The translations under genes and the position numbers were made by a program. Shown in pieces: positions 2,567 to 40,883 of a stretch of 64,000 bases of DNA; the first letter of the stretch is position 1; each line of letters opens with the position of its first letter. The stretch is taken from sequence record NZ_CP011600.1. The stretch is one strand, 5' to 3'. The notes beneath the pieces were generated by a model. The model was given only the letters and a program-made list of their open reading frames with translations, ran no database searches and was not told the DNA's origin. The stretch comes from a plasmid.

Positions 2567-3124
2567 CTAAGCGTGCGTGGAGGCTGGCACCCAGCGGTAC
2601 AGCGTCGGAATGGACACGCCGAGGTTCTTGGCCACGTCCTTGGGCGGCACCCCGCTGGCCAGCAGCTTCTTGGCCGACTCGATCTTGCTGTCGGTCATCT
2701 TCGGCTTGCGGCCGCCTTTGCGGCCGAGCTGCTTGGCGACTTCCAGCCCGGCGCGGGTGCGCTCGACGGTCAGCTCGCGCTCCATTTCGGCAAGGCTCGC
2801 CATGACGTGGAAGAAGAACCGCCCGGATGGTGTGCCGGTGTCGATGGAGTCGGTGAGGCTCCTGAACTGGACACCGTGCTTGTGCAGATCGCCGACCAGA
2901 TCGACCAGTTGCTTGACCGACCGGCCCAGCCGGTCGAGCTTCCAGACGACCAAAGTATCGCCTTCGCGCAGCATTTCGAGCGTCTTGGCCAAGCCAGGCC
3001 GGTCTGCCCGCGTGCCACTCACCTTGTCCTCGAAGACCTTTTTACATCCGGCCTTGCTCAAGGCTTCGCGTTGCAGCTCCAGGTTCTGATCCTGCGTCGA
3101 GACGCGCGCATAGCCAATCAACAT
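2567..3124 (-). CDS. tnpR: serine recombinase (resolvase) TnpR
   Basis: 185 aa; MLIGYARVSTQDQNLELQ catalytic-Ser N-terminus and C-terminal HTH (GVSIPTLYRW); about 85% identical to the TnpR at 15814. Confidence 0.9.
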   Translation of the reverse strand: MLIGYARVSTQDQNLELQREALSKAGCKKVFEDKVSGTRADRPGLAKTLEMLREGDTLVVWKLDRLGRSVKQLVDLVGDLHKHGVQFRSLTDSIDTGTPSGRFFFHVMASLAEMERELTVERTRAGLEVAKQLGRKGGRKPKMTDSKIESAKKLLASGVPPKDVAKNLGVSIPTLYRWVPASTHA

Positions 3125-3486
3125 GGCTTGTCTCGCGCCCGGTCGATGCGTTCCTGCATCGCCTGCATCACTTCTTCGTGGGTGTACGATCTGGCGTTGG
3201 CGTCGGTGGCTTGCCGCAGGGCTTCCTCAACCTCGCGCGTCATCCGCTCGTAATCCTCCGGCCACAGCGCTTGCTCCATGCGCAGCGACGCCTGACCCAG
3301 CAGGTGCAGCAGGCTGAACAGCCGCATGTCGTTGGTGGCGACGATGCGCTCCCGAATCTGCTCCTGAATAGCTTCGCTAGCCCGATGCGCTTGTGGTGTG
3401 GCAGTCCCCTCGTAGTCAGCGGGGAATTCCGCTTCCTCGGCAATCCTTGCCCAGGCGCTGGCCAGCGCCTCGATGGTTGACGTGCT
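3118..3486 (-). CDS. hypothetical protein (122 aa, acidic, helical)
   Basis: Start MSTSTIEAL overlaps the stop of the upstream gene by ATGA, and its 3' end overlaps the tnpR start by 7 bp, so it is translationally coupled. Confidence 0.45.
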   Translation of the reverse strand, partial: STSTIEALASAWARIAEEAEFPADYEGTATPQAHRASEAIQEQIRERIVATNDMRLFSLLHLLGQASLRMEQALWPEDYERMTREVEEALRQATDANARSYTHEEVMQAMQERIDRARDKPC

Positions 3487-3998
3487 CATTTCCGCCGCTC
3501 CTGTGCTCTTTGGCGAATCAACCGGCCAAGGGGCCTCGACGCGAAAACCAGCAGCATCACGCCTATCGGATACCAGGTCGAGAAGACCACCAAGGCATCG
3601 AAGGCTGGCCGTCCGGTGTTGGTAGGCAGTACGGCGGTCACAGCCATCAACCCGCCGACCGTCCAGATGATGCGCCACACGTAGGGCATCACGCGGGGCA
3701 CGTAGCCGTCATCGAAAGCGGTCTGGTAGTAGCGGCGCAGGCCGCGCTCGGCAAGCGCCTGGCGCTGCCGCTCCGACAGCGCATCCGTCCGGCCATACCA
3801 GCGCCGGAATGGTGGACAGCGCAGCAGCAAAGGGGTGAAGAGGATCATCACCGCCACGATCGCGACACCCCACGCCATGACGGCGCCGGCATCGGGCCGC
3901 TTGGCGTTCTCGATCACGGGCGCGAAGACGCCCGGAGCACCGATCATCCAGAACAGCGCAATGTGCTGATGGAAGGAGAGCTTCATTTGCTCATCCAC
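3486..3998 (-). CDS. hypothetical integral membrane protein (170 aa, about 4 TM)
   Basis: Hydrophobic segments LFWMIGAPGVF, VAIVAVMILFTPLLL, IIWTVGGLMAVTAVL, YPIGVMLLVFA; overlaps both neighbours. Confidence 0.45.
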   Translation of the reverse strand: MDEQMKLSFHQHIALFWMIGAPGVFAPVIENAKRPDAGAVMAWGVAIVAVMILFTPLLLRCPPFRRWYGRTDALSERQRQALAERGLRRYYQTAFDDGYVPRVMPYVWRIIWTVGGLMAVTAVLPTNTGRPAFDALVVFSTWYPIGVMLLVFASRPLGRLIRQRAQERRK

Positions 3999-4309
3999 TT
4001 GCGCAGCAGGCGCTTTTTCAGGGAGGCGCGTTCTTGCGGGTTGCGTCCCTTGTGATTGGCGATGCGATCCGCCGTGGCGGCCTGGCGCTTGACGGGCCAG
4101 TAGGAGCGGCCATCCTTGCCCATCGACCAGACGCTGCTGGCCTGGTTTTCCAGCAGGGGCAGATGGGCGCTCAGGGCTTCGGGCGACGCGCTGGTCAGCG
4201 CCGTGCGCTCACGGGTGCGCCAGCGCTGATGCCAGAGCTTCTTGTCCTCGCGCTCGCTGCCGCAGGTCGTGTGCCCGACGATGGGTGTTTTGCGGCGGCT
4301 GCGGCTCAT
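3983..4309 (-). CDS. hypothetical basic protein (108 aa)
   Basis: Lys/Arg-rich; overlaps the downstream gene by 16 bp; first gene of an apparent 4-gene unit ending in tnpR. Confidence 0.4.
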   Translation of the reverse strand: MSRSRRKTPIVGHTTCGSEREDKKLWHQRWRTRERTALTSASPEALSAHLPLLENQASSVWSMGKDGRSYWPVKRQAATADRIANHKGRNPQERASLKKRLLRKWMSK

Positions 4310-4563
4310 AACGTAGTGGTCTCCAAGAACATTCAGGACTGATCCCAGGCGTCGATGGTCAAGACCTGATCGGCAGGACAGGCGGCTACGCGGTCGGGAA
4401 CTGGATGGTGTTCAGTCTCATGCCGACCCCATTCGATTGATCGCGTCGCTTGCGGCACGCTGCGACGCAAGGAGGTTTGCGACCTGGTTTAGCAGCCGTG
4501 TCCGCTGCATGTCTGTTACCTATCTCCCCGACCGCTCATTGGACCAACTCCAGAGATTGGGCT

Positions 4564-4920
4564 CTATCGCTCAGCCAATACGAAACCGGCATTGGCTGAT
4601 GCCACAACCGAGACTAACACAAATGGCTCGGTACCTGTATTTCGCGCCCCGTGCACTTGGCCCGGTCTTGCCACGGCTATCTCACCTTCCCTGAGGGCAC
4701 GAACAATCCCATTGCCCTGAAAGTAATCAGCCATTCCCGACAAAACAGTCCACGTGTCTTGGCCGTGAGGATGAATGTGAGCCGCAATTTCCTGCCCGGG
4801 ATGGACATGCCAAACCACGATAATTGAGTCTCGGGTTTCAAGCACAACGGAACGAATAGGCTCGCCTTCGGACGGCTGAACATACTCGGCTACAGAAAAT
4901 ATTCTCGATTCAACAGTCAT
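4564..4920 (-). CDS. cupin-domain protein
   Basis: 118 aa from MTVESRIF (GAGGGA SD); cupin His motifs HVHPGQEIAAHIHPHGQD...GQVHGARN; the longer 191-aa ORF call is an N-terminal over-extension into hepT. Confidence 0.65.
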   Translation of the reverse strand: MTVESRIFSVAEYVQPSEGEPIRSVVLETRDSIIVVWHVHPGQEIAAHIHPHGQDTWTVLSGMADYFQGNGIVRALREGEIAVARPGQVHGARNTGTEPFVLVSVVASANAGFVLAER

Positions 4921-5311
4921 CGGAGATCCCTCTTTCACAGTTGTCGTTACGGTCTTCATCGTCGGCATCCTGACGCACGGCGGGCAATTGCTGGAGCAAC
5001 GCCGGCAGCCATTCCTGTACCGTCTCCCACACCACATCGAGGTTGATGTCGAAATAGCCGTGAGCCATGCGATTACGCATATTGCGCATGCTGCGCCACG
5101 GCACGTCGGCATGCGCCTGGGTGAACTCGACGTAGCCATCCATCACCTTTGTGGCCGCCTCGCCGATGACGATCAGGCTCATGATGACGGCCTGCTGGGT
5201 GCGCTTGTCGGCCAAGAAGTCGTCCTTGGCCATCCCTTCCACGAAGCTGCGCGCATCGGTTGCGGCCTGCTGAATGTGGTCGAGGTAATCGGGCAGGCGG
5301 TTCTCGCTCAT
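4910..5311 (-). CDS. hepT: HepT-like (DUF86/HEPN) toxin
   Basis: 133 aa; HEPN Rx4-6H motif (RNRMAHGY); 4-bp overlap with the upstream nucleotidyltransferase gene. Confidence 0.7.
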   Translation of the reverse strand: MSENRLPDYLDHIQQAATDARSFVEGMAKDDFLADKRTQQAVIMSLIVIGEAATKVMDGYVEFTQAHADVPWRSMRNMRNRMAHGYFDINLDVVWETVQEWLPALLQQLPAVRQDADDEDRNDNCERGISDDC

Positions 5312-5604
5312 ATCGGTTGCGCCTCCGCGAGCACCTTGGCCCGGAACTTCGGCGGCAGGTCGCCGGGAGTCAGCAGATCGACGTCAACGCCGAGCAGCGA
5401 TTTCAGTTCTTCTTCCAAATCGCCCAAGTCCAACAACGTGGCACCGGGCAGCGCATCGACCAACAGGTCGAGGTCGCTGCCATCCCGGTCGGTGCCATGC
5501 AGCACCGAGCCGAAGACGCGCGGGTTCGCGGCGCGAAAGCGGCCTACCGCTTCACGCACTGCGCTTCGCTTCATGTCAAGCACAACAGACGGTCGCATGC
5601 GCAT
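5308..5604 (-). CDS. mntA: MntA-like minimal nucleotidyltransferase antitoxin
   Basis: 98 aa; GSxxxGxxxxxSDxD nucleotidyltransferase motif (GSVLHGTDRDGSDLDLLV). Confidence 0.7.
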   Translation of the reverse strand: MRMRPSVVLDMKRSAVREAVGRFRAANPRVFGSVLHGTDRDGSDLDLLVDALPGATLLDLGDLEEELKSLLGVDVDLLTPGDLPPKFRAKVLAEAQPI

Positions 5605-5607
5605 CCT

Positions 5608-5700
5608 TTCTTATCGAAACTCGTTGAGATGATATGCAATCAAGAATAGAATTTCAAGAACTATTTTCGAGAATCGCAATGCCTTGATTCCCGTGCCGCG
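5608..5700 (-). promoter_or_regulatory. putative res (resolution) site of Tn#1
   Basis: About 85-bp stretch whose reverse complement is about 80% identical to the tnpA-tnpR intergenic region at 15368-15450 (shared core TGCGATTCTCGAAAAnAGTTCTTGAAA). Confidence 0.6.
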
Positions 5701-5705
5701 CCGGT

Positions 5706-5730
5706 TGTCACTTTCAGAAGGCGACAGCAC
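5706..5730 (+). repeat. Tn402/Tn5053-family 25-bp terminal IR (IRt-like)
   Basis: TGTCACTTTCAGAAGGCGACAGCAC matches 22 of 25 positions of the Tn5053 IR (TGTCATTTTCAGAAGACGACTGCAC) as recalled from memory. Confidence 0.6.
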
Positions 5731-5791
5731 GAAATATCAAAAGTCGACCGCACGGTCTTTTCTGACGTTGGAGTCGCCTCAGAAAACGGAA

Positions 5792-7118
5792 TCTATGGTC
5801 ACTCCCGTTTTTGCAACACCGATTTTGACGACAAGTTGGCTTGCTTGAATCTATCCGGCGTCTGAATGGGATTTTATTCCCGCGCCTCGATGAGTTCCGC
5901 GCCTGATGAACCTCCAGAAAATATACGGCTTCAATGAGCCTTTCCGTTTTACAGGTTCCTCAACAGGCCGGTGGGCCGTTAGTATCATCAATATCAGTAT
6001 TCGCAAAACCAGATGAATGATTGTTTAAACTGGTGTATTTCTGCCTTTATGCTTCGTAAGTTTGCTGTCGCGCCGTCAGTGCCCAGGCTATTCTGGCCAG
6101 CTTGTTTGCCAGAGCACAGGTGACGACAAAGTTGCTTTTCCGACACAACAACTCCCTGACCCAGTCGGCCAACTTGCCAGACTGGTGTTCCAGTTTTTGT
6201 ATGAATACCCTGGCACACTGAACCAACAAAGTTCGGATCTTTTTGTTGCCCCGCTTGCTAATCCCTAACAATGTCGTCCGACCTCCCGTGCTGTACTGTC
6301 GGGGTACCAGCCCTGTTGCCGCCGCAAAGTCACGGCTGCTGGCGTACTGCTTCCCGTCGCCAATCTCAGTTGAAATAGTACTGGCAGTCAGCGTTCCAAC
6401 GCAGGGAATACTCAGCAAGCGCTGTCCAACCTCATCTTCGTCCAACTTTCGTTTCAACTGAGATTCCAGATCTTTAATCTGCTCAACAAGATAGTGATAA
6501 TGCTGTTGTAATTTCAGCAGTAACTGGCTGAGATAAAGAGGCAAACTACTGTCCTCAAGAAGGGTACTCAGTCGACTAATAACGGCAGCACCTCGCGGAA
6601 CGCTGATACCAAATTCCAGCAGAAAAGCATGCATCTGATTAGTTGTTTTCACCTTATCCTGAACCAGGGATTCACGGACACGATGCAGAGCTCGCATTGC
6701 CTGCTGAGATTCGGTTCTGGGCTGCACGAAACGCATAGATGGACGTGATGCTGCTTCACAGATAGCTTCAGCATCAACGAAGTCATTTTTGTTGCTTTTA
6801 ACGAATGGGCGGACAAATTGCGGTGATATCAGCTTTGGAAAATGCCCTAACTCTGCCAGCTTGCGTGCCATAAAGTGAGAACCGCCACAGGCTTCCATCG
6901 CGATGGTTGTTGCCGGGCATGTCGCCAGAAATTCGATTAGCTTTGGTCGGGTGAATTTTTTACGGTAAACGGCCTTCCCACGATGATCCTGACAATGAAT
7001 ATGGAAAGAGTTCTTACCCAGATCGATACCAATAAGCGCAATGTTTTCCATGATGGTTCTCCGAATGAAAGCCTGTCCTCAGCATAGTACTGGGAAGGAG
7101 GGAGTGACCATCTCATTA
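5792..7118 (-). mobile_element. IS5075/IS4321-like element, copy 2 (1327 bp)
   Basis: Identical to copy 1. Confidence 0.85.
6047..7051 (-). CDS. IS110-family transposase
   Basis: Identical 334-aa ORF. Confidence 0.85.
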   Translation of the reverse strand: MENIALIGIDLGKNSFHIHCQDHRGKAVYRKKFTRPKLIEFLATCPATTIAMEACGGSHFMARKLAELGHFPKLISPQFVRPFVKSNKNDFVDAEAICEAASRPSMRFVQPRTESQQAMRALHRVRESLVQDKVKTTNQMHAFLLEFGISVPRGAAVISRLSTLLEDSSLPLYLSQLLLKLQQHYHYLVEQIKDLESQLKRKLDEDEVGQRLLSIPCVGTLTASTISTEIGDGKQYASSRDFAAATGLVPRQYSTGGRTTLLGISKRGNKKIRTLLVQCARVFIQKLEHQSGKLADWVRELLCRKSNFVVTCALANKLARIAWALTARQQTYEA

Positions 7119-7150
7119 AATAAAGCACGCTAAGGCGTAGTTCCCTCGGG

Positions 7151-8022: not shown

Positions 8023-10189
<2,167 letters not shown>

Positions 10190-10205
10190 AAAAAGGAGGT
10201 TTTCA

Positions 10206-10571
10206 ATGAGCGCCTACACCGTGTCCCGGCTGGCCCTTGATGCCGGGGTGAGCGTGCATATCGTGCGCGACTACCTGCTGCGCGGATTGCTGCGTCCGGT
10301 GGCGTGCACCCCGGGCGGCTATGGCCTGTTCGATGATGCCGCCTTGCAACGGCTGTGCTTCGTGCGGGCGGCCTTCGAGGCGGGCATCGGCCTGGACGCG
10401 CTGGCGCGGCTGTGCCGGGCGCTGGATGCTGCGGACGGCGATGAAGCGGCCGCGCAGCTTGCCGTTCTGCGCCAGTTCGTCGAGCGTCGGCGCGAAGCGT
10501 TGGCCGATCTGGAGGTGCAGTTGGCCACCATGCCGACCGAGCCGGCACAGCACGCGGAGAGTCTGCCATGA
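10206..10571 (+). CDS. merD: MerD co-regulator
   Basis: 121 aa; MerR-like HTH. Confidence 0.9.
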
Positions 10572-10804
10572 ACAGCCCCGAGCGCTTGCCGTCCGAGACG
10601 CACAAACCGATCACCGGCTACCTGTGGGGCGCGCTGGCCGTGCTCACCTGTCCCTGCCATTTGCCGATTCTCGCCATTGTGCTGGCCGGCACGACGGCCG
10701 GCGCGTTCATCGGAGAGTACTGGGGTATCGCAGCCCTCACGCTGACCGGTTTGTTCGTCCTGTCTGTGACACGACTGCTGCGGGCCTTCAAAGATCGATC
10801 ATGA
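10568..10804 (+). CDS. merE: MerE
   Basis: 78 aa; two TM helices with the CPCH motif; overlaps merD. Confidence 0.85.
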
Positions 10805-10970: not shown

Positions 10971-10991
10971 GGGGTCACCTCAGAAAACGGA

Positions 10992-12318
10992 TCTATGGTC
11001 ACTCCCGTTTTTGCAACACCGATTTTGACGACAAGTTGGCTTGCTTGAATCTATCCGGCGTCTGAATGGGATTTTATTCCCGCGCCTCGATGAGTTCCGC
11101 GCCTGATGAACCTCCAGAAAATATACGGCTTCAATGAGCCTTTCCGTTTTACAGGTTCCTCAACAGGCCGGTGGGCCGTTAGTATCATCAATATCAGTAT
11201 TCGCAAAACCAGATGAATGATTGTTTAAACTGGTGTATTTCTGCCTTTATGCTTCGTAAGTTTGCTGTCGCGCCGTCAGTGCCCAGGCTATTCTGGCCAG
11301 CTTGTTTGCCAGAGCACAGGTGACGACAAAGTTGCTTTTCCGACACAACAACTCCCTGACCCAGTCGGCCAACTTGCCAGACTGGTGTTCCAGTTTTTGT
11401 ATGAATACCCTGGCACACTGAACCAACAAAGTTCGGATCTTTTTGTTGCCCCGCTTGCTAATCCCTAACAATGTCGTCCGACCTCCCGTGCTGTACTGTC
11501 GGGGTACCAGCCCTGTTGCCGCCGCAAAGTCACGGCTGCTGGCGTACTGCTTCCCGTCGCCAATCTCAGTTGAAATAGTACTGGCAGTCAGCGTTCCAAC
11601 GCAGGGAATACTCAGCAAGCGCTGTCCAACCTCATCTTCGTCCAACTTTCGTTTCAACTGAGATTCCAGATCTTTAATCTGCTCAACAAGATAGTGATAA
11701 TGCTGTTGTAATTTCAGCAGTAACTGGCTGAGATAAAGAGGCAAACTACTGTCCTCAAGAAGGGTACTCAGTCGACTAATAACGGCAGCACCTCGCGGAA
11801 CGCTGATACCAAATTCCAGCAGAAAAGCATGCATCTGATTAGTTGTTTTCACCTTATCCTGAACCAGGGATTCACGGACACGATGCAGAGCTCGCATTGC
11901 CTGCTGAGATTCGGTTCTGGGCTGCACGAAACGCATAGATGGACGTGATGCTGCTTCACAGATAGCTTCAGCATCAACGAAGTCATTTTTGTTGCTTTTA
12001 ACGAATGGGCGGACAAATTGCGGTGATATCAGCTTTGGAAAATGCCCTAACTCTGCCAGCTTGCGTGCCATAAAGTGAGAACCGCCACAGGCTTCCATCG
12101 CGATGGTTGTTGCCGGGCATGTCGCCAGAAATTCGATTAGCTTTGGTCGGGTGAATTTTTTACGGTAAACGGCCTTCCCACGATGATCCTGACAATGAAT
12201 ATGGAAAGAGTTCTTACCCAGATCGATACCAATAAGCGCAATGTTTTCCATGATGGTTCTCCGAATGAAAGCCTGTCCTCAGCATAGTACTGGGAAGGAG
12301 GGAGTGACCATCTCATTA
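10992..12318 (-). mobile_element. IS5075/IS4321-like element, copy 3 (1327 bp)
   Basis: Identical to copy 1. Confidence 0.85.
11247..12251 (-). CDS. IS110-family transposase
   Basis: Identical 334-aa ORF. Confidence 0.85.
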   Translation of the reverse strand: MENIALIGIDLGKNSFHIHCQDHRGKAVYRKKFTRPKLIEFLATCPATTIAMEACGGSHFMARKLAELGHFPKLISPQFVRPFVKSNKNDFVDAEAICEAASRPSMRFVQPRTESQQAMRALHRVRESLVQDKVKTTNQMHAFLLEFGISVPRGAAVISRLSTLLEDSSLPLYLSQLLLKLQQHYHYLVEQIKDLESQLKRKLDEDEVGQRLLSIPCVGTLTASTISTEIGDGKQYASSRDFAAATGLVPRQYSTGGRTTLLGISKRGNKKIRTLLVQCARVFIQKLEHQSGKLADWVRELLCRKSNFVVTCALANKLARIAWALTARQQTYEA

Positions 12319-12329
12319 AAAATCGTACG

Positions 12330-15299
12330 CTAAGACCCAGAGAGCGGACGTAGCGGTCGGAATTTCCCCACGCCTACTTTGGAGCTACTGCGCCAGAGGT
12401 AATCGCCGGTCAGGTTGATATGCTCCCAACCCAGCGGCGACAGGTACTGCAACAGCCCTTCATCGACACCATGGCCGTGGCCGCGCAAAGCATTCGCGGC
12501 GCGCTCCAGGTAGACCGTGTTCCACAGCACGATGGCCGCCGTCACCAGGTTGAGGCCACTGGCCCGGTAGCGCTGCTGCTCGAAACTGCGGTCGCGGATT
12601 TCGCCCAGCCGGTTGAAGAACACCGCCCTGGCCAGCGCATTGCGGGCTTCGCCCTTGTTCAATCCGGCATGCACACGACGGCGTAGTTCCACGCTTTGCA
12701 GCCAGTCCAAGATGAACAGCGTGCGCTCGATGCGCCCCAGCTCGCGCAGCGCAACGGCCAGGCCGTTCTGGCGCGGGTAGCTGCCGAGCTTGCGCAACAT
12801 CAGCGAGGCCGTCACCGTGCCCTGTTTGATCGAGGTAGCCAGGCGCAGGATTTCATCCCAATGGGCACGAATAGCCTTGATGTTCAACTTGTCGCTGCTA
12901 ATCGTCGGTCTGAGTGCGTCGTAACTGGCTTCACCCTTAGGGATGAACAGCTTGGTGTCGCCCAGGGCGCGGATGCGCGGCGCGAAGCGGAAGCCCAGCA
13001 GATGCATGAGGGCAAAGACATGATCGGTGAAGCCCGCCGTGTCGGTGTAGTGCTCCTCGATGCGCAGGTCGGACTCGTGGTACAGCAGGCCGTCGAGCAC
13101 GTAGGTCGAGTCGCGCACGCCGACGTTCACGACCTTGGTGTGGAACGGCGCGTACTGGTCGGAGATGTGCGTGTAAAACGTCCGCCCTGGGCTGCTGCCA
13201 TATTTCGGGTTGATGTGCCCGGTGCTCTCGGCCTTGCTGCCGGTGCGGAAGTTCTGGCCGTCCGACGATGACGTGGTGCCGTCACCCCAATGCTCGGCGA
13301 AGGGATGCCGGAACTGCGCGTTCACCAATTCGGCCAGCGCCGTCGAATAGGTTTCATCGCGGGTATGCCAGGCTTGTAGCCAGGCGAGCTTGGCATACGT
13401 TGTGCCGGGACAGGACTCGGCCATCTTGGTCAGGCCGAGATTGATCGCGTCGGCCAGTATGGTGGTCAGCAGCAGGTTCTTGTCCTTGGCCAGGTCGCCC
13501 GATTTCAGGTGCGTAAAGTGGCGGGTGAAGCCCGTCCATTCATCCACTTCCATAAGCAGTTCGGTGATCTTGATGTGCGGCAGGATCATCGCGGTCTGGT
13601 CGATCAGCGCCTGCGCGGTGTCAGGCACCGCCGCATCCAGAGGCGTGATCTTCAGGCCAGACTCGGTGATGATGGCGTCCGGCAGGTCGTTGGCCGCCGC
13701 CATGCGGTTGACGGTCGCAAGCTGTGTTTCTAGCAGCGTCAGCCGGTCATGCAGGTACTGGTCGCAGTTGGTGACCACAGCCAGCGGCAGTTCGCTGGCC
13801 AGCTTGAGGCTGGCGAATTTCACAGGCGGTACCAGGTAGTCCTCGAAATCCTTGAACTGGCGTGAGCCTTGCACCCAGATGTCGCCGGAGCGCAGCGCGT
13901 TCTTCAGTTCCGACAGTGCGCACAACTCGTAGTAGCGCCGGTCGATGCCGGCATCGGTCATCACCAGCTTCTGCCAGCGCGGCTTGATGAAGTCGGTCGG
14001 CGCATCGGCAGGCACCTTGCGTGCGTTGTCGCTGTTCATGCCGCGCAGCACCTCGATGGCGTCCAGCACATCCTTGGCAGCGGGCGCAGCCCGCAGCTTG
14101 AGCACGGCGAGGAATTCCGGCGCGTACCGGCGTAACGTGGCGTAGCTCTCGCCGATGCGGTGCAGGAAATCGAAGTCCTCGGGCTGCGCGAGCTTCTGCG
14201 CTTCGGTGACATTTTCGGCGAAAGCATCCCAGGATAGTACGCCCTCGATGGCGGCGAACGGATCGCGGCCCGCTTGCTTGGCCTCGATCAGCGCCTGGCC
14301 GATGCGCCCGAACAGCCGCACCTTGGCGTTGATCGCCTTGCCGGATGCCTGAAACTGCTGCTGATGCTTGTTCTTGGCGGCGTTGAACAGCTTGCCCAGG
14401 ATGCGGTCGTGCAAGTCGATGATTTCGTCGGTGACCGTGGCCATGCCCTCGATGGCGAGCGCGACCAGGGTGGCGTAGCGCCGCTGCGCCTCGAACTTGG
14501 CCAGGTCGGCGGGTGTCATCTGGCCACCCTCGCGGGCGATCTTGAGCAGGCGATTCTGGTGCACCGACCGCTCGACGCCGGAAGGCAGGTCGAGCGCCTG
14601 CCATGCCTTGAGGCGTTCGATGTGTTCGAGCATGTGCCGCGAATTGGGCTTGACGGGTGACTGGCGCAGCCAGGCCAGCCAGGTCGTTTTGCCGTTGTCC
14701 CGGCGTTTGAGCAGATCGTCAAGGCGGCGACGATGCGCGTCCGATAGCGGTTCGGACAAGGTTTCGTAGATTTGCCGGTTGGCGCGGGTGATCGCCTCGG
14801 CACAGACGCGCTCGACAACATCCAGCGTCGGCAAGATGACGTGTCGGTGCCGCAGGTCGTCGAGAACACTGTTGGCCAGCATGATGCCCTTGTCGGTTTG
14901 CAAGGCCAACTCGGTCGCGGCATGGACAGCCTGCCGATAGTGCGCCAGGCCGAACGGCTCCATGCCCAAATATGCACGCAGCTCAAGCAGATGCTCGCGC
15001 CGGGTTTCTTCCCTCTCTGCATACTGTGGCCAGCACGATGGATCGATGCGCAGTTGCCGTCCGATCCATTGCAGCAGGGGCATCGGCACCGCAGCGTCGG
15101 GCAGCAGGCCCTGACCGGGAAAGCGCAATAAGCATAATTGCACCGCGACACCCAGGCGGTTGGCGTCACCGCGCCGCTGGCGGATTAGTGACAGGTCGGG
15201 TTCGCTGAACGTGTAGAGCCGGATGAGTTCGTCTTGGGTATCGGGCAACGCCAAGAGACTGTCGCGCTCTGCGGCGGAGAGGATTGAACGGCGGGGCAT
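12330..15299 (-). CDS. tnpA: Tn3-family (Tn21-subgroup-like) transposase TnpA
   Basis: 989 aa; [21 protein letters not shown]-terminus resembles the Tn21 TnpA N-terminus as recalled from memory; the stop lies within the IR. Confidence 0.9.
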
Positions 15300-15344
15300 G
15301 CAGTCTCCTTCTTCTCAAAAACGTAGGTTTGCGACAATCCCGCT

Positions 15345-15460
15345 CAACCCTCTGGCGCGGTACAGCAAATCAATGCGTTGCGATTCTCGAAAACAGTTCT
15401 TGAAACTTTATTCTTGAATTCTTATCATATCAACGCGTTTCGAGAAATAGTGATGTAGCC
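15345..15460 (+). promoter_or_regulatory. putative res site / operon promoter of Tn#3
   Basis: Lies between divergent tnpA and the small-ORF/tnpR unit; shares the about 85-bp conserved core with 5608-5700. Confidence 0.6.
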
Positions 15461-15509
15461 AACCGCTGCCCCAAGTGGCTTTGACGTGTTTACGAAAGGA
15501 GAAAGACTC

Positions 15510-15806
15510 ATGGGTATTTTTGACAGACTTTTCGGTGGCCACCACGGTGGCGGTTACAGCGGTGGTGGGCATCACGGTGGTGGGCATCACGGTGGTGGCG
15601 GTGGGTACGGAAGCGGCGGGCCGCCAGCGGGCGGGTGGGGTAATGGCGGCCTTGCTTGCCCCAACTGCAAGGCATCTAACGCGCCAGGCGCTCGCTTCTG
15701 CCAGCAGTGCGGGACTTCGTTGGTTCCTTCGGCTTGCGCGCAATGCGGAACCACACTGCAACCGGGTACGAAGTTTTGCGCTCAGTGCGGCAAGGCAGCG
15801 GTCTGA
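15510..15806 (+). CDS. small Gly/His-rich protein with C-terminal double zinc ribbon (98 aa)
   Basis: AAAGGAG SD 8 nt upstream of the ATG; N-terminus FGGHHGGGYSGGGHHGGGHHGGGGGYGSGG (includes a tandem 15-bp DNA repeat); C-terminus CPNC..(17 aa)..CQQC..(8 aa)..CAQC..(9 aa)..CAQC; its stop is 7 bp upstream of tnpR. Confidence 0.6.
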   Translation: MGIFDRLFGGHHGGGYSGGGHHGGGHHGGGGGYGSGGPPAGGWGNGGLACPNCKASNAPGARFCQQCGTSLVPSACAQCGTTLQPGTKFCAQCGKAAV

Positions 15807-15813
15807 CCGTGCC

Positions 15814-16380
15814 ATGCTCGTCGGCTATGCGCGCGTCTCGACGCAGGATCAGAACCTGGAGCTACAGCGAGAGGCCTTGACCCAGGCCGGGTGCCAAAAG
15901 CTCTTTGAGGACAAATTAAGCGGCACGAGAGCCGAGCGCCCCGGCTTGGCCAAGGCGCTTGAAATGCTACGCAAGGGAGACACGCTGGTCGTCTGGAAGC
16001 TGGATCGCCTGGGCCGTAGCGTCAAGCAATTGGTCGATCTGGTCAGCGAGTTGCACAAGCAGAGCATCCAGTTCAAGAGTCTCACCGACGCCATCGACAC
16101 CGGCACGCCGTCGGGACGGTTCTTCTTTCACGTCATGGCCAGCCTCGCCGAAATGGAGCGCGAGCTGACGGTGGAGCGGACCCGTGCAGGATTGGCGGTC
16201 GCCCGGCTGTCAGGCCGCAAGGGAGGACGCAAACCGAAGATGACCAAAAGCAAGATTGAATCGGCCAAGAAACTGCTCGCCAGCGGGATCGCTCCCAAGG
16301 ACGTGGCCAAGAACCTCGGGGTCTCAATCCCGACGTTGTATCGCTGGGTGCCGGCTTCCGGTCACGCTGAACAAAAATGA
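15814..16380 (+). CDS. tnpR: serine recombinase (resolvase) TnpR
   Basis: 188 aa from MLVGYARVSTQDQNLELQ; the longer 301-aa ORF call is an upstream over-extension. Confidence 0.9.
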   Translation: MLVGYARVSTQDQNLELQREALTQAGCQKLFEDKLSGTRAERPGLAKALEMLRKGDTLVVWKLDRLGRSVKQLVDLVSELHKQSIQFKSLTDAIDTGTPSGRFFFHVMASLAEMERELTVERTRAGLAVARLSGRKGGRKPKMTKSKIESAKKLLASGIAPKDVAKNLGVSIPTLYRWVPASGHAEQK

Positions 16381-16399
16381 ACTCAGAAGAAGGACGAAG

Positions 16400-17359
16400 A
16401 TGAGCACCAATCACTCCCATGCCCTACCCAGCGAGCGCAATGAAAAATCGCTCTGGATCGCCCTGGCGCTGACCGGAAGCTTCCTGCTGGCCGAAGTCGC
16501 CGCAGGCATTGTTTTCAACAGCCTGGCCCTGCTCTCAGATGCGGCGCACATGTTCACGGATGCAGCGGCGCTGGCCATCGCCTTGGCGGCTGTACGGGTG
16601 GCGAGACGGCCAGCCGATGCCAAGCGCACCTATGGCTACTACCGCTTCGAAATCCTTGCGGCCGCATTCAACGCCCTGTTGCTCTTCGGCGTCGCTGGCT
16701 ACATCCTGTATGAGGGCTGGCAGCGTTTGCGCGAGCCAGCGCAGGTTCAGTCCAGCGGGATGCTGGTGGTAGCAGTGCTGGGTCTGATCGTCAACCTCAT
16801 CAGCATGCGTATGCTTCAGGGCGGCAAGGACAAGAGCCTCAACGTCAAAGGCGCTTATCTGGAGGTCTGGAGCGACATGCTTGGCTCCATCGGCGTGATC
16901 GGAGCTGCGCTGGTCATCCGATTCACCGGCTGGGTGTGGGTAGATGCGGTCGTCGCCGTGGCAATTGGGCTTTGGGTGCTGCCACGAACTTGGCTGCTAC
17001 TCAAGGAAAGCCTGAATGTCTTGCTGGAGGGAGTCCCAGACGGCATTGACATGGGAGCCTTGATGGCATCTGTTCAGGCCGTGCCAGGCGTGACAGGGCT
17101 GCATGACTTGCACGTATGGGCGCTCACGAGCGGCAAGGTCAGCATGACCGCTCATATCGTGTATGCGCCGGAAATAGGGCCCGACGAGTTGCTCAAAACC
17201 CTCAAGTTGTTGCTGGCTGACCGATTCAGCATCTTCCATACGACGCTGCAACTGGAGATTGTTGCCTGTGAGCACAGCGTCGATGGGTGCAACTTCGTGG
17301 ATCATCGCCACAAAGAACCGAGTTCTCAACCAGACCAAGCCGCAGCCCGGCAGGCGTGA
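16400..17359 (+). CDS. czcD: cation diffusion facilitator (CzcD-like Zn/Co/Cd efflux)
   Basis: 319 aa from MSTNHSHALP; six TM helices with the CDF signature HxxxD pairs (HMFTDAAAL, SDMLGSIGV) and a His-rich N-terminus. Confidence 0.8.
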   Translation: MSTNHSHALPSERNEKSLWIALALTGSFLLAEVAAGIVFNSLALLSDAAHMFTDAAALAIALAAVRVARRPADAKRTYGYYRFEILAAAFNALLLFGVAGYILYEGWQRLREPAQVQSSGMLVVAVLGLIVNLISMRMLQGGKDKSLNVKGAYLEVWSDMLGSIGVIGAALVIRFTGWVWVDAVVAVAIGLWVLPRTWLLLKESLNVLLEGVPDGIDMGALMASVQAVPGVTGLHDLHVWALTSGKVSMTAHIVYAPEIGPDELLKTLKLLLADRFSIFHTTLQLEIVACEHSVDGCNFVDHRHKEPSSQPDQAAARQA

Positions 17360-17412
17360 CTAATGGGACTCCTACTACCCGGCTAGCCAAACCGGTCTTA
17401 GCGTACGATTTT

Positions 17413-18739
17413 TAATGAGATGGTCACTCCCTCCTTCCCAGTACTATGCTGAGGACAGGCTTTCATTCGGAGAACCATCATGGAAAACATTGCGCTTATT
17501 GGTATCGATCTGGGTAAGAACTCTTTCCATATTCATTGTCAGGATCATCGTGGGAAGGCCGTTTACCGTAAAAAATTCACCCGACCAAAGCTAATCGAAT
17601 TTCTGGCGACATGCCCGGCAACAACCATCGCGATGGAAGCCTGTGGCGGTTCTCACTTTATGGCACGCAAGCTGGCAGAGTTAGGGCATTTTCCAAAGCT
17701 GATATCACCGCAATTTGTCCGCCCATTCGTTAAAAGCAACAAAAATGACTTCGTTGATGCTGAAGCTATCTGTGAAGCAGCATCACGTCCATCTATGCGT
17801 TTCGTGCAGCCCAGAACCGAATCTCAGCAGGCAATGCGAGCTCTGCATCGTGTCCGTGAATCCCTGGTTCAGGATAAGGTGAAAACAACTAATCAGATGC
17901 ATGCTTTTCTGCTGGAATTTGGTATCAGCGTTCCGCGAGGTGCTGCCGTTATTAGTCGACTGAGTACCCTTCTTGAGGACAGTAGTTTGCCTCTTTATCT
18001 CAGCCAGTTACTGCTGAAATTACAACAGCATTATCACTATCTTGTTGAGCAGATTAAAGATCTGGAATCTCAGTTGAAACGAAAGTTGGACGAAGATGAG
18101 GTTGGACAGCGCTTGCTGAGTATTCCCTGCGTTGGAACGCTGACTGCCAGTACTATTTCAACTGAGATTGGCGACGGGAAGCAGTACGCCAGCAGCCGTG
18201 ACTTTGCGGCGGCAACAGGGCTGGTACCCCGACAGTACAGCACGGGAGGTCGGACGACATTGTTAGGGATTAGCAAGCGGGGCAACAAAAAGATCCGAAC
18301 TTTGTTGGTTCAGTGTGCCAGGGTATTCATACAAAAACTGGAACACCAGTCTGGCAAGTTGGCCGACTGGGTCAGGGAGTTGTTGTGTCGGAAAAGCAAC
18401 TTTGTCGTCACCTGTGCTCTGGCAAACAAGCTGGCCAGAATAGCCTGGGCACTGACGGCGCGACAGCAAACTTACGAAGCATAAAGGCAGAAATACACCA
18501 GTTTAAACAATCATTCATCTGGTTTTGCGAATACTGATATTGATGATACTAACGGCCCACCGGCCTGTTGAGGAACCTGTAAAACGGAAAGGCTCATTGA
18601 AGCCGTATATTTTCTGGAGGTTCATCAGGCGCGGAACTCATCGAGGCGCGGGAATAAAATCCCATTCAGACGCCGGATAGATTCAAGCAAGCCAACTTGT
18701 CGTCAAAATCGGTGTTGCAAAAACGGGAGTGACCATAGA
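17413..18739 (+). mobile_element. IS5075/IS4321-like element, copy 4 (1327 bp, inverted relative to the others)
   Basis: Identical sequence in the opposite orientation, consistent with the orientation-specific IR target. Confidence 0.85.
17480..18484 (+). CDS. IS110-family transposase
   Basis: Identical 334-aa ORF. Confidence 0.85.
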   Translation: MENIALIGIDLGKNSFHIHCQDHRGKAVYRKKFTRPKLIEFLATCPATTIAMEACGGSHFMARKLAELGHFPKLISPQFVRPFVKSNKNDFVDAEAICEAASRPSMRFVQPRTESQQAMRALHRVRESLVQDKVKTTNQMHAFLLEFGISVPRGAAVISRLSTLLEDSSLPLYLSQLLLKLQQHYHYLVEQIKDLESQLKRKLDEDEVGQRLLSIPCVGTLTASTISTEIGDGKQYASSRDFAAATGLVPRQYSTGGRTTLLGISKRGNKKIRTLLVQCARVFIQKLEHQSGKLADWVRELLCRKSNFVVTCALANKLARIAWALTARQQTYEA

Positions 18740-18761
18740 TTCCGTTTTCTGAGACGACCCC

Positions 18762-22771: not shown

Positions 22772-23591
22772 GGCACTGTTGCAAAGTTAGCGATGAGGCA
22801 GCCTTTTGTCTTATTCAAAGGCCTTACATTTCAAAAACTCTGCTTACCAGGCGCATTTCGCCCAGGGGATCACCATAATAAAATGCTGAGGCCTGGCCTT
22901 TGCGTAGTGCACGCATCACCTCAATACCTTTGATGGTGGCGTAAGCCGTCTTCATGGATTTAAATCCCAGCGTGGCGTTGATTATCCGTTTCAGTTTGCC
23001 ATGATCGCATTCAATCACGTTGTTCCGGTACTTAATCTGTCGGTGTTCAACGTCAGACGGGCACCGGCCTTCGCGTTTGAGCAGAGCAAGCGCGCGACCA
23101 TAGGCGGGCGCTTTATCCGTGTTGATGAATCGTGGGATCTGCCACTTCTTCACGTTGTTGAGGATTTTACCCAGAAACCGGTATGCAGCTTTGCTGTTAC
23201 GACGGGAGGAGAGATAAAAATCGACAGTGCGGCCCCGGCTGTCGACGGCCCGGTACAGATACGCCCAGCGGCCATTGACCTTCACGTAGGTTTCATCCAT
23301 GTGCCACGGGCAAAGATCGGAAGGGTTACGCCAGTACCAGCGCAGCCGTTTTTCCATTTCAGGCGCATAACGCTGAACCCAGCGGTAAATCGTGGAGTGA
23401 TCGACATTCACTCCGCGTTCAGCCAGCATCTCCTGCAGCTCACGGTAACTGATGCCGTATTTGCAGTACCAGCGTACGGCCCACAGAATGATGTCACGCT
23501 GAAAATGCCGGCCTTTGAATGGGTTCATGTGCAGCTCCATCAGCAAAAGGGGATGATAAGTTTATCACCACCGACTATTTGCAACAGTGCC
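22772..23591 (-). mobile_element. IS26 (820 bp)
   Basis: 14-bp IRs GGCACTGTTGCAAA / TTTGCAACAGTGCC at exactly 820-bp spacing; Tnp26 ORF inside; the flanks GTATAAAT and GATCTCCA give no 8-bp target-site duplication. Confidence 0.9.
22824..23546 (-). CDS. tnpA: IS26 transposase Tnp26
   Basis: MNPFKGRHFQRDIILWAVRWYCKYGISYRELQEM... matches IS6-family Tnp26. Confidence 0.9.
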   Translation of the reverse strand: MLMELHMNPFKGRHFQRDIILWAVRWYCKYGISYRELQEMLAERGVNVDHSTIYRWVQRYAPEMEKRLRWYWRNPSDLCPWHMDETYVKVNGRWAYLYRAVDSRGRTVDFYLSSRRNSKAAYRFLGKILNNVKKWQIPRFINTDKAPAYGRALALLKREGRCPSDVEHRQIKYRNNVIECDHGKLKRIINATLGFKSMKTAYATIKGIEVMRALRKGQASAFYYGDPLGEMRLVSRVFEM

Positions 23592-23791: not shown

Positions 23792-26239
23792 TTATTTCCC
23801 GAGCCTGACACTTTTCAGACGCAACGCATTCACAATGACGCTGACGGAGGAAAGAGCCATGGCCGCCGCCGCAATAACTGGCGACAGCAGTATTCCATAC
23901 ACAGGATAAAGCAGACCTGCAGCCACAGGCACGCCAAGTGCGTTGTAGATAAATGCAAAAAACAGATTCTGTCGGATATTTTTCATGGTGATTTCTGACA
24001 GATGACGGGCCCTGTTCAGTATCATCAGGTCGCCTTTGAGAAGGGTGACTCCGGCACTTTCAATTGCCACATCTGTACCCGTTCCCATGGCTATACCCAC
24101 GTCAGCCGCTGCCAGCGCCGGGGCATCATTCACACCGTCTCCGGCCATCGCAACCACATGGCCAGACGCTTTCAGTCGGGTTATCACTGCTTTTTTGCCA
24201 TCCGGCAGAATCCCGGCTTCAACCTCATCTATTCCCAGTTTCCGTGCGACTGCTTCAGCGGTAAGCTGGTTATCCCCGGTGAGCATAACGATGCGGATCC
24301 CCGCCTGACGCAAAGCTTTAAGCGCATCCGGCGTGGTTGCTTTCACGGGATCCGAGATAGCTATCAGGCCTGCAAGGTGCCCGTCTGTGGCCACATAGAT
24401 AACGGTAGCGCCTTCCATCCGCAACGTATCCGCAACGGCCTTTTGATTATCAATAACGATACTGTTTTCCTGCATAGCCAGTTCATTACCAATAACAACC
24501 CGTTGACCTTCGACATCGCCTGAGACACCTTTACCCGACGGCGCATTGAAATGAGTGACTGCGGGTATTGCGATCCCCTTTTCCTGTGCTGCTTTAACTA
24601 CTGCCATACCCAGCGGATGCTGCGAGCCTTTTTCCACTGCGGCCGTTACACGCAAAAGAGATGTTTCCCCACCCGGATTGAGACTGATAATCCCTGTCAC
24701 CGTCGGCGAACCTTCCGTGAGCGTGCCTGTTTTGTCGACAACCAGCGTGTCCACTTTTTCAAGACGCTCAAGGGCTTCGGCATTCCTGATTAACACCCCG
24801 GCCTGGGCTCCTTTGCCCACCCCCACCATTATCGACATCGGCGTGGCCAGCCCCAGCGCGCAGGGACAGGCAATAATCAGGACCGACACAGCCGCAATGA
24901 GACCGTGCGCCATCCTGGGCTCGGGCCCCCAGACAGACCAGATCATGAAAGCAACAACCGCGATAAGTATCACCAGAGGAACAAACCAGCCTGAAACGCT
25001 GTCAGCCATTCTCTGGATGGGGGCCCGCGAACGCTGTGCATCAGCGACCATCTGAACAATTCGTGAGAGCATCGTTTCATCACCGACTTTCTCTGCACGG
25101 ATGATAAGACTACCTGTCTGATTAATGGTCCCCCCGATGACAGGGTCACCCTCCGTTTTGGTAACAGGCATAGATTCCCCGGTCACCATCGATTCATCAA
25201 CGGTTGTTTTGCCTTCGACCACGATACCGTCGACCGGAATACTCTCTCCAGGTCTGATGCGGAGCTTATCGCCAGGCAGGACATCTTCCGCATTAATATC
25301 CGTTTCATGACCGTCTTGATCCAGCCGCCTGGCGGTTTTGGGGGCAAGGTTAAGAAGCGCAGTAATGGCACCTGAGGTTTGTTCCCTTGCCCGCAATTCA
25401 AGGACCTGTCCCAGCAGAACAAGCACCGTAATAACTGCTGCGGCTTCAAAATAAACGGCCACCAGGCCATCCATGTTTCTGAACGATGCAGGAAACCAGG
25501 AGGGGAAGACGGTTGCAATGACGCTGTAAACCCAGGCTACGCCGGTCCCCATTGCAACAAGGGTAAACATATTCAGGGAGCGGTTACGTAACGACATTAC
25601 GGCCCGGGCGAAGAATGGCCAGCCACACCACAACACGACAGGGGAGGCCAGAAGCAGCTGCAGCCATGTGTTGTACTGTGGCGGTACTGTATTCCTCAAG
25701 TCGGGAAACAGATGAGATCCCATTTCGAGTACCAGAACCGGAAACGCCAGCAACAACCCCAGCCAGAAGCGTCTTGTCATGTCGTGAAGTTCATCACTCG
25801 GCCCCGTGGATGCCGTAGCTACGAGCGGCTCCAGTGCCATTCCACAGACAGGACAGCTTCCGGGACCACTGCGGCGTATCTCCGGGTGCATCGGACATGT
25901 CCACACACCTTCAGAATTCTCTTTTTCCGCCTGGTGGTGAGGCTGTTTTATCTGATCAGGGCTGACTTCGTGATGATCGTGGTGATGGTGATGGGAATGT
26001 TCACTGGCATCTTCGGTAAGATAACGATCGGGATGGGCTTTAAATTTACTCTCACAGCTGGCGGAGCAGAAATAAAGTTGATGGTCCTGGTATCGAATGC
26101 TGCTGTGCGCCCTGTCGGGCAGGATGGCCATCCCGCACACGGGATCTCTCACCTTATGCAATACGTGGCCCTCGTCCGGGGATAATGTCTGCTCAGAAGC
26201 AGTCTGGTTGTTGTGTTGCACTGCATTGTCATTTTTCAC
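23792..26239 (-). CDS. silP: Ag+/Cu+ P1B-type ATPase SilP
   Basis: 815 aa; N-terminal CxxC metal-binding motifs, CPC in TM6, [17 protein letters not shown]. Confidence 0.85.
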
Positions 26240-39830: not shown

Positions 39831-40801
39831 TGAAGCGTGCTCCTGTCATTCCAAGACATACCACACATACTCAATCGACTGAAGATACTTCATCACCGGC
39901 GCCGGCCGCGCCGATGGTGGATTCATTAATTGCGCGCGTGGGTGCTATGGCCCGCGGTAATGCAATCTCTCTTCCGGTAAGTGGACGGGAAGTAAAATTT
40001 ACCCTTGAGGTGCTCCGGGGAGACTCTGTTGAGAGCGCTTCACGCGTATGGTCAGGCAATGAGCGCGATCAGGAACTACTTACCGAAGATGCTCTGGATG
40101 ATCTCATTCCTTCATTTTTACTGACCGGTCAGCAGACTCCAGCTTTCGGCCGCCGGGTTTCTGATGTCATAGAAATTGCAGACGGCAGCCGTCGCCGTAA
40201 AGCCGCAATCCTGACGGAAAGTGATTATCGCGTTCTGGTTGGTGAACTGGACGATGAGCAGATGGCTGCATTGTCCCGACTGGGTAACGATTATCGGCCG
40301 ACGAGTGCTTATGAACGTGGCCTGCGTTATACAAGCCGGCTGCAGAATGAGTTTGCAGGAAATATTTCTGCGCTTGCCGATGCGGAAAACATTTCACGTA
40401 AGATCATTACCCGCTGTATTAATACGGCCAAACTGCCTAAATCCGTTGTTGCCCTGTTTGCACATCCTGGAGAACTGTCTGCCCGGTCAGGTGAAGCCCT
40501 TCAGAAGGCTTTTGCAGATAAAGAAGAATTACTGAAGCAGCAGGCTGAGACTCTCCACGATCAGAAGAAAGCGGGACTAATCTTTGAAGCTGAAGAGGTC
40601 ATTAGTCTTTTAACATCCGTACTGAAACAATCTCCCGCATCAAGAGTTAATCTGAGCTCACGTCATCAGTTTGCTCCAGGGGCAACAGCATTGTATAAGG
40701 GCGATAAAATGGTGCTTAACCTGGATAAGTCCCGCATTCCTGCGGAGTGTATAGAGAAAATAGAAGCCATTCTTAAGGAGCTTGAGAAACCAGGAGTCTG
40801 A
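39830..40801 (+). CDS. sopB: centromere-binding protein SopB (ParB family)
   Basis: 323 aa; ATGA overlap with sopA. Confidence 0.9.
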
Positions 40802-40883
40802 TGCGGACACGCATTAGTCTACGGTGATCTCCCTTTACTTCATTTCCTTTCTCACAGGCCAGAAAACATAACTGGCCTGAATA

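Follow-up and report, generated by a model that had tools for sequence, protein, structure and literature searches.

A Zrd-family double zinc-ribbon gene lies between res and tnpR in the Tn3-family transposon TnShfr1

The DNA analysed, referred to here as the window, was a stretch of 64,000 nt of the plasmid record NZ_CP011600.1, with positions numbered from the window start. The subject is a 98-aa open reading frame (ORF), here assigned to the Zrd family, which lies inside the Tn3-family transposon TnShfr1, between the putative res site and the serine resolvase gene tnpR and upstream of a czcD-type exporter gene. The parts of the ORF, hereafter zrd, are as follows.

15510–15806, plus strand: zrd-family gene, 98 aa, with ATG at 15510 and stop codon TGA at 15804–15806
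15495–15501, plus strand: Shine-Dalgarno (SD) sequence AAAGGAG, 8 nt 5′ of the ATG, invariant in four elements
15534–15598, plus strand: 15-bp tandem repeat (GGTGGGCATCACGGT), 4.3 copies with 80% matches (Tandem Repeats Finder), coding for GGGHH units
15657–15791, plus strand: double zinc ribbon core, residues 50–94 (PF12773), with two CXXC-N10-CXXC sites, eight invariant Cys and pLDDT 80–87

The preliminary description of this DNA, made from the sequence alone, had proposed a 98-aa ORF with a strong SD, a His/Gly N-terminus arising from a 15-bp tandem repeat, and a four-CxxC double zinc ribbon, and all of these were borne out. Predicted SD/anti-SD pairing was −8.7 kcal/mol, compared with a mean of −2.35 (sd 2.5) at random window positions. 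The encoded protein consists of an N-terminal motif (MGIFDRLFGG), a disordered His/Gly tract (GGHHGGGYSGGGHHGGGHHGGGGGYGSGG), which is the product of the 15-bp repeat, and the double zinc ribbon, in which the four CxxC pairs form two CXXC-N10-CXXC units. The C-terminal half matched Pfam DZR (PF12773) over the full model (1–45) with E 4e-14 and 52.9 bits, against a gathering threshold of 27.3, and the ribbon region also matched several single zinc-ribbon Pfam models. AlphaFold2, run with the family alignment, predicted an ordered ribbon pair at residues 46–98 (pLDDT 80–87) and disorder at residues 1–45 (pLDDT <50). In RefSeq the ORF bears the product name "zinc ribbon domain-containing protein" (WP_025714488.1, 98 aa; WP_024946414.1, 93 aa), and the annotated proteins were found in Enterobacter and Klebsiella plasmids with a gene order identical to that of the window.

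Comparison of the protein with NCBIfam gave no family model, only a domain-level match to a phosphatase N-terminus, and no metallothionein family was matched in Pfam or NCBIfam. Sequence search of the PDB returned generic zinc ribbons only (DZANK1, eL40, bL32, YfgJ), and a Foldseek search of the PDB with the predicted model gave a best E of 0.1 and nothing specific. An Rfam scan of 15200–17500 found no riboswitch (e.g. the czcD/NiCo motif); its one match, 'Prion pseudoknot' at 15572–15602 (20.6 bits, E 0.93), was sub-threshold, lay inside the GGGHH-coding repeat, and is a compositional echo of prion octarepeat DNA. The prion octarepeat peptide HGGGW binds copper, and the periplasmic E. coli protein ZraP carries His/Gly-rich metal-binding tails. 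The Zrd tract, with its HHGGG/HGGGH repeats, is like the ZraP tails and the HGGGW core in being His/Gly-rich, but these are unrelated proteins of other compartments, and the resemblance is compositional only.

The zrd ORF is a real gene under purifying selection. Its low-complexity sequence, and a long antisense ORF at 15408–15815, would suit an ORF that arose by chance in GC-rich DNA with repeats, but that reading, already refuted by the conservation data, is left with a vanishingly small probability by the Pfam match (E 4e-14), the homologous loci, the signature of selection, the invariant SD and start, and the transcript of the PAO1 homologue detected by experiment (PMC12301328). A scan of 185,579 species genomes (one genome per species) yielded 301 zrd-encoding loci, mostly in Burkholderiales, and a protein search gave 63 relatives of 55–146 aa (most 83–118 aa) with a shared architecture. 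Across 28 aligned members none of the eight Cys varied, and the N-terminal start M-G/S-I/F-L/F-x-R/K-L/I-F/L-G-G-H-H was kept; for the family the N-terminal motif can be written M-G/S-F/I-L/F-E/D-R/K-L-L/F-G-G-H-H. Across the 45-codon ribbon core, the ratio of non-synonymous to synonymous divergence (dN/dS) was 0.08–0.25 (Nei–Gojobori, pairs with unsaturated dS). Between the window and an Ottowia copy, dS was 0.46, dN 0.07 and dN/dS 0.15, so the protein sequence has been maintained inside the transposon lineage. For codons 2–10, pooled over 16 homologues, pS was 0.81 and pN 0.21, and these data indicate that the N-terminus is translated. In the four elements compared, length differences of the G/H tract are multiples of 3, and no variation occurs in the SD, the start or the distance from the stop to tnpR. 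In 94 small homologues the median linker was 41 residues long; Gly made up 30% of linker residues and His 13%, and the commonest His-bracketed units were HHGGGH and HGGGH.

The family itself was named from one species. Barrows et al. (2025, Front Microbiol 16:1608957, PMC12301328) determined the site of the P. aeruginosa regulator PaCadR and identified a second genomic target, GACCCTGTAGTGGCTACAGCCTT, in the 376-bp opdD/PA1026 gap, 5′ of an unannotated ORF that was named zrd. CadR binding at this gene was demonstrated by electrophoretic mobility shift assay and chromatin immunoprecipitation, and its induction by Cd/Zn was CadR-dependent by RT-qPCR; for the product, PaZrd, a disordered N-terminus and two CXXC-N10-CXXC ribbons were described, metallothionein-like sequestration was proposed, and translation of the N-terminus was left open (PMC12301328). 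A word-index protein search with the P. chlororaphis homologue as query did not retrieve PaZrd; its locus (L097; L numbers denote loci compared here) was recovered from metagenome contigs by way of the published 23-nt CadR site, and reproduces the 376-bp gap, the published site, a promoter (TTGACCCTGTAGTGGCTACAGCCTTTTCACT) and a 91-aa ORF starting MGFFERLLMGGRHHGQGGGHHGGGHH. An hhalign comparison of the family alignment (first row, the window protein) with PaZrd of L097 gave 99.8% probability and E 4e-28 over 88 columns, full length, and blastp of the window protein against PaZrd gave 49% identity over the ribbons with E 4e-13; by these two matches the window ORF is a member of the Zrd family. 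The two proteins have the full-length architecture in common (motif MGFFERLL in PaZrd, HHGGGHH tract, two CXXC-N10-CXXC ribbons), and both are small and tied to Zn/Cd detoxification genes. PaZrd is encoded by a stand-alone chromosomal gene with a CadR-activated MerR-type promoter, whereas the window copy lacks a CadR operator, sits in a transposon behind the res promoter with tnpR and czcD downstream, and has a ribbon identity of only ~49%.

Gene neighbourhoods of 92 zrd loci were classified by tblastn with chosen representative neighbours, which replaced an all-against-all clustering of neighbour ORFs that suffered from noise, namely the long spurious antisense ORFs of high-GC DNA. The loci were distributed as follows.

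29/92 loci: zrd directly 3′ of a P1B-type ATPase gene with a divergent MerR-family gene, gaps 24–272 nt; in 15 of the 29 a ZIP-family gene then follows after 7 nt
11/92 loci: zrd after czc(C)BA
3/92 loci: CDF gene within 1.2 kb of zrd (e.g. L012, CDF gene then zrd)
4/92 loci: zrd then a ZIP gene, the upstream side being cut off or different (L011: CsoR/RcnR-type repressor gene, zrd, ZIP gene)
12/92 loci: zrd adjoining a resolvase gene
6/92 loci: some exporter gene within 6 kb of zrd
19/92 loci: zrd with its own MerR-type promoter (18 stand-alone, one with an exporter gene within 6 kb)
8/92 loci: no link found

In 84/92 loci zrd is associated with Zn/Cd exporters or with a CadR-type operator. 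The MerR-family neighbour passes the CadR-PbrR equivalog model (166 bits; cut-off 151 bits), and the P1B-ATPase neighbour passes the cadmium-family P1B model. With a regular expression for the CadR-type operator, 45 matches were found in 937 kb of homologous loci (both strands), all in the orientation of zrd, while locally shuffled sequence gave a mean of 0.13; the motif is present at PaZrd as well. The matches lie in the cadR/ATPase intergenic region, or just 5′ of zrd genes not preceded by a P1B-ATPase gene (mostly stand-alone), with three exceptions (L011, L025 and a minus-strand match in L045). Stand-alone zrd genes of Dickeya, Pseudomonas, Variovorax, Cupriavidus and Acidovorax have a MerR-type promoter 60–130 nt 5′ of the start, e.g. 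TTGACCCTGTAGTAACTATAGGGTGTTGAAT. Public annotations of Variovorax homologues (L006, and L010-type records P0009 and P0010) begin 36–38 codons 5′ of the conserved MG, and these starts are probably mis-called, since they read through the CadR operator.

From these neighbourhoods a metal-related role of the Zrd family is strongly supported, and across Beta- and Gammaproteobacteria the family appears to be part of the Zn/Cd efflux response. The same regular expression found no CadR-type motif in the whole 64-kb window. The TnShfr1 copy has evidently lost the operator of its relatives, and this absence is a lost regulatory feature and no argument against homology. The preliminary description had suggested a metal-binding, chaperone or sensing role coupled to resolvase expression; the metal-related part stands (84/92 loci, and Cd/Zn induction of PaZrd in PMC12301328), and sensing coupled to the resolvase is not supported, given the loss of the operator.

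Several arrangements bear on the transporters with which zrd is paired. A ZIP gene follows zrd by 7–10 nt in L035–L037, L048, L052, L056, L072–L080, L083 and L084, and by ~120 nt in L011 and L025, and such pairs occur in mobile contexts as well as in many Comamonadaceae, where cadA, zrd and the ZIP gene form an operon under CadR control. A ZIP gene would not be expected in a metal-excess operon, since ZIP proteins usually import metal. The order in L025 (Aquabacterium) is res-tnpR-zrd-ZIP, and in L090 a CDF gene lies 58 nt 3′ of zrd. L007–L010 and L018 (Burkholderiales bin, three short assemblies) contain zrd, a decayed tnpR and czcD, with czcCBA alongside and no tnpA; this chromosomal or metagenome-assembled module (L007 5190–6830, L008–L010, L018), in which the resolvase gene is in fragments, looks like a domesticated remnant of transposon cargo. 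As the pair is found outside TnShfr1 in these loci (L007–L010, L018, L090), the association of zrd with CDF genes is older and wider than the transposon.

The transposon and the region between its divergent genes comprise the following features.

10971–10991: outer 21 bp (GGGGTCACCTCAGAAAACGGA) of the 38-bp left inverted repeat (IR), a Tn21-type IR sequence mirrored at 18741–18761
10992–12317, minus strand: IS4321/IS5075-like element of the IS110 family in the left IR, with transposase at 11247–12251 (DEDD_Tnp_IS110, Transposase_20; RefSeq name in the same arrangement)
12318–12334: inner 17 bp (AAAAATCGTACGCTAAG) of the left IR, overlapping the tnpA stop
12330–15299, minus strand: tnpA, Tn3-family transposase, 989 aa (DDE_Tnp_Tn3 E 2e-157; NF033527 1281 bits)
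15330–15460: approximate res and divergent promoter region, made up of a conserved block at ~15368–15456 and tnpA-proximal sequence from ~15330
15400–15428, plus strand: sigma-70-like promoter TTGAAA-17-TATCAT toward zrd-tnpR-czcD, 10/12 matches, conserved in sister elements
15405–15433, minus strand: overlapping divergent promoter-like site TTGATA-17-TAAAGT toward tnpA, 9/12 matches
15814–16380, plus strand: tnpR, serine resolvase, 188 aa (Resolvase E 1.5e-47, HTH_7), starting 7 nt after the zrd stop
16400–17359, plus strand: czcD/zitB-like CDF exporter gene, 319 aa (Cation_efflux and ZT_dimer), 19 nt after tnpR
17397–17413: inner 17 bp of the right IR
17414–18740, plus strand: second IS4321/IS5075-like element, in the right IR, with transposase at 17480–18484; a 100% inverted copy of the left element
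18741–18761: outer 21 bp of the right IR

The tnpA product has the same sequence as the RefSeq entry "Tn3-like element TnShfr1 family transposase", and the window element is the same transposon as that carrying the ISfinder/RefSeq name TnShfr1. It has the marks of the Tn3 family, namely a DDE Tn3 transposase, 38-bp terminal IRs and a serine resolvase. Both Tn21-type IRs are split, each by a 1.3-kb IS4321/IS5075-like insertion, and since the 5-bp flanks of the IRs differ (ACCTT vs ACCAA) the transposon is without a target duplication. The exporter gene scored 289.7 bits with TIGR01297 (cut-off 82.35) and 250 bits with the ZitB model NF002923 (cut-off 408); as the latter score is under its cut-off, czcD encodes a CDF exporter but not a ZitB equivalog, and the earlier placing of a CzcD-type gene downstream of zrd within an IR-bounded unit was confirmed. 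TnShfr1 appears in the literature found only as a label in gene maps or lists of insertion sequences (IS), and no paper discussing its zrd ORF was found in the literature searched.

A scan for sigma-70-like sites found three where 0.5 were expected; the site at 15400–15428 was the sole plus-strand match from tnpA to the end of czcD, and no convincing terminator was found among zrd, tnpR and czcD. Cotranscription of the three genes from a promoter inside res, cotranscription having been proposed in the preliminary description, is supported by this arrangement of a single upstream promoter and no convincing internal terminator. The ~90-bp block (~15368–15456) contains repeated TTCTYGAA motifs and the divergent promoters, and the res site, for which three subsites would be expected, is placed only approximately. 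The block is conserved in four elements that differ in their first gene, which is zrd in the window and in an Ottowia plasmid (L020), an antitoxin gene in an MNT/HEPN sister element (L002, and in the window at 5560–5800), and tnpR in Aquabacterium L025, behaviour expected of a res with embedded promoters. A homology breakpoint at 15397 was considered as the res crossover and rejected; it is the end of the Tn21-type IR of the sister element, which abuts there, and this IR adjoins TnShfr1 position 15396/15397 in other plasmids (L002, L093).

The stop of zrd lies 7 nt before the tnpR ATG at 15814, and the placing of zrd between the putative res and tnpR was confirmed, the bounds of res being approximate. 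Predicted SD pairing of tnpR is −2.4 (window) and −0.2 kcal/mol in two TnShfr1-type elements, which amounts to no SD of its own, and is −7.7 kcal/mol in L025, where tnpR directly follows res; the value for czcD is −5.4 kcal/mol. Because tnpR is without its own SD and the stop-to-start gap is 7 nt, tnpR is probably translationally coupled to zrd, and termination–reinitiation, in which ribosomes finishing zrd would re-initiate on tnpR, is probably the simplest reading. Metal dependence of tnpR was not supported, and the coupling appears mechanical (shared transcript, tnpR lacking its own SD). The SD-less tnpR behind a zrd with a strong SD, the conserved stop-to-start spacing, a repeat tract that tolerates indels, and the apparently frame-disturbed alleles in plasmid records would also fit a zrd that in TnShfr1 acts mainly as a leader cistron feeding ribosomes to tnpR, its protein being a dispensable hitchhiker. 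This is improbable in view of the ribbon-core dN/dS of 0.15 at dS 0.46 between the window and Ottowia, and of the module with decayed tnpR (L007–L010), which keeps zrd intact.

The layout of res, small ORF, tnpR and cargo that had been pointed out earlier is real, and recurs in a diverged relative on the Ottowia plasmid (TnpA 70%, TnpR 90%), which also supplies the homologous small ORF expected at this position in related Tn3 elements. Toxin–antitoxin (TA) pairs embedded in the transposition module of Tn3 elements, next to res, were described by Lima-Mendez et al. (2020, mBio, PMC7157771), among them the HEPN/MNT pair between tnpA and tnpR of TnSod9 (Shewanella), and in that survey all non-TA passenger genes lay away from the transposition module. 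Published precedent for a gene between res and tnpR is thus restricted to TA pairs. Like these elements, TnShfr1 has a passenger gene that lies between res and tnpR and is served by the res promoter, but its slot holds a single metal-related gene, with zinc-ribbon family matches only (Pfam), and not a two-gene TA pair. The sister element in the window (~2567–5769, minus strand) is without tnpA, and its res block is almost the same as the one in TnShfr1; its order is IR, res, MNT/HEPN-type pair, cupin gene, three hypothetical genes, a second tnpR (82% nucleotide identity to 15811–16368) and IR, with an IS at both ends. Since it carries the MNT/HEPN pair and other genes there, the lineage has an open res–tnpR slot.

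A nucleic-acid-binding or regulatory zinc ribbon, for instance a metal-dependent modulator of transcription, of translation or of the resolvase and res, would explain the position of zrd by res. Zinc ribbons often occur in proteins that bind nucleic acids, the ribosomal zinc ribbons eL40 and bL32 as well as RadD are among the weak PDB matches, and zrd occupies a slot otherwise used by autoregulated TA modules (PMC7157771). A resolvase gene is nearby in only 12/92 loci, however, all of one lineage; adjacency to res is not conserved, as the order in L025 is res-tnpR-zrd; and the protein has no basic surface or helix-turn-helix, with structural matches that are not significant (best E 0.1). Such a function is accordingly rated as quite unlikely.

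In the mechanism proposed, zrd and czcD would form a two-gene metal-tolerance cargo bracketing tnpR, with all three genes transcribed from the res-embedded promoter TTGAAA-17-TATCAT. Because the CadR operator is absent, their expression would be regulator-free, and it is probably held down by TnpR at res. Repression of its own promoter is established for the Tn3/γδ resolvase. The two Cys4 sites and the HHGGG repeats of Zrd would bind Zn(II)/Cd(II), and the protein would then act as a buffer for free metal in the cytosol as the exporter expressed with it pumps the metal out. For Zrd as such a small cytoplasmic Zn/Cd-buffering protein, judged from sequence and gene context, the chances seem about even. 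Metallothioneins are small, metal-induced proteins containing Cys/His, with polynuclear clusters. The metallothionein-like model behind buffering is that proposed for PaZrd (PMC12301328), and Zrd is like the bacterial metallothioneins (SmtA/BmtA, Pseudomonas PmtA) in being small and Cys/His-containing, with a zinc-finger-like fold, induction by metal excess and a proposed role in sequestration, a comparison made in part in the discussion of that paper. The metallothioneins have polynuclear Cys clusters, whereas Zrd would have two separate mononuclear Cys4 ribbons and a disordered His/Gly arm.

Several points weigh against this mechanism. The experimental record of the Zrd family is transcript induction in PAO1 only, the eight Cys in mononuclear sites may be purely structural, and the window protein contains no more than 6 His. 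In a few homologues the linker has no His at all, so His-mediated binding cannot be the whole function. In some 20 plasmids of Klebsiella/Raoultella, IS26 cuts off zrd at window position 15773 while tnpR-czcD is retained, and zrd is therefore dispensable for the persistence of tnpR-czcD remnants. Repression of the res promoter by TnpR, though probable, is assumed by analogy with Tn3/γδ.

The low metal capacity (eight Cys, few His) fits a carrier better than a sponge, and Zrd may alternatively be a dedicated exporter partner, a metallochaperone or adaptor and not a passive buffer. Its His/Gly arm would capture Zn/Cd, and the N-terminal motif or the ribbons would dock on the cytosolic domains of CDF or P1B proteins, or on ZIP, so that metal is handed over or transport stimulated. 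Tight operon linkage to three unrelated transporter classes, with gaps of 24–26 nt after the ATPase gene and 7 nt before the ZIP gene, argues for such a partner, as does the short N-terminal motif under purifying selection, which resembles a docking peptide; 27/92 loci without a transporter within 6 kb argue against it, and the partner reading is possible but doubtful. Buffering and exporter chaperoning cannot be separated by the sequence data: the N-terminal motif and the low capacity lean to a partner-binding role, and the many stand-alone CadR-controlled copies lean to an autonomous one. We know of no dedicated cytosolic protein that serves bacterial Zn/Cd exporters. That Zrd is this missing cytosolic partner of Zn/Cd efflux, its HHGGG arm handing metal to CDF, P1B or ZIP, and that TnShfr1 has joined it to czcD in a 'carrier plus pump' unit free of a regulator, in which the first cistron also gates resolvase translation, is a speculative and rather unlikely reading; if true, it ties transposon resolution to the expression of the transposon's own cargo.

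TnShfr1 was already catalogued, the ORF annotated, and the Zrd family named in 2025. New are the assignment of the plasmid-borne gene to that family, the breadth of its linkage to cadA, czc, CDF and ZIP operons and to CadR boxes in many genera, and the coding evidence, drawn from substitution patterns, for the N-terminus that the 2025 authors left open; it is also new that a non-TA gene occupies the res–tnpR slot and probably controls resolvase translation. A zrd copy stripped of metal regulation is spreading inside TnShfr1 on clinical Enterobacter/Klebsiella plasmids; the slot of this Tn3 lineage accepts non-TA cargo, which could take over the start of resolvase translation, and plasmid-borne zrd-tnpR-czcD offers a compact natural construct for work on Zrd function.

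Among PLSDB plasmids the 15-bp repeat is polymorphic, which agrees with the variation in GGGHH repeat number that was to be looked for across isolates. The 98-aa allele was present in seven plasmid records and a 15-bp (one-unit) deletion allele in three, so that 93-aa and 98-aa alleles exist. One plasmid record had a rearranged tract with an internal frame shift and one more had a 1-nt insertion; the records concerned are L093 3611–3907 (pKAM622_3) and L094 (pEnt261), and in the rearranged tract the frame shifts and then recovers. The repeat may be unstable in vivo or error-prone in assemblies, and some of these frame-disturbed alleles may be assembly errors.

Elsewhere in the window, five near-identical IS4321/IS5075-like copies occur within the 64 kb (1207–2571, 5769–7134, 10971–12337, 17397–18761 and 48416–49788). 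Each is embedded in a Tn21-type terminal IR, and all of the Tn21-type ends observed here seem to have been hit; with their ends so occupied, the Tn21-type transposons of the window should be immobilised. ORFs recognised by eye as merA, merD and merE-like lie at 8267–10804, and ~170 nt separate their end from the left IR of TnShfr1. An inverted pair of identical IS26 copies (22772–23591 and 45864–46683) brackets ~22 kb, which starts with an 815-aa heavy-metal P-type ATPase gene at 23792–26239 (silP-like by eye) and large RND-type ORFs. At 40799–41786 there are ~23 head-to-tail copies of a 43-bp unit, with ~90% identity between central copies, an array that may represent plasmid iterons or a partition site.

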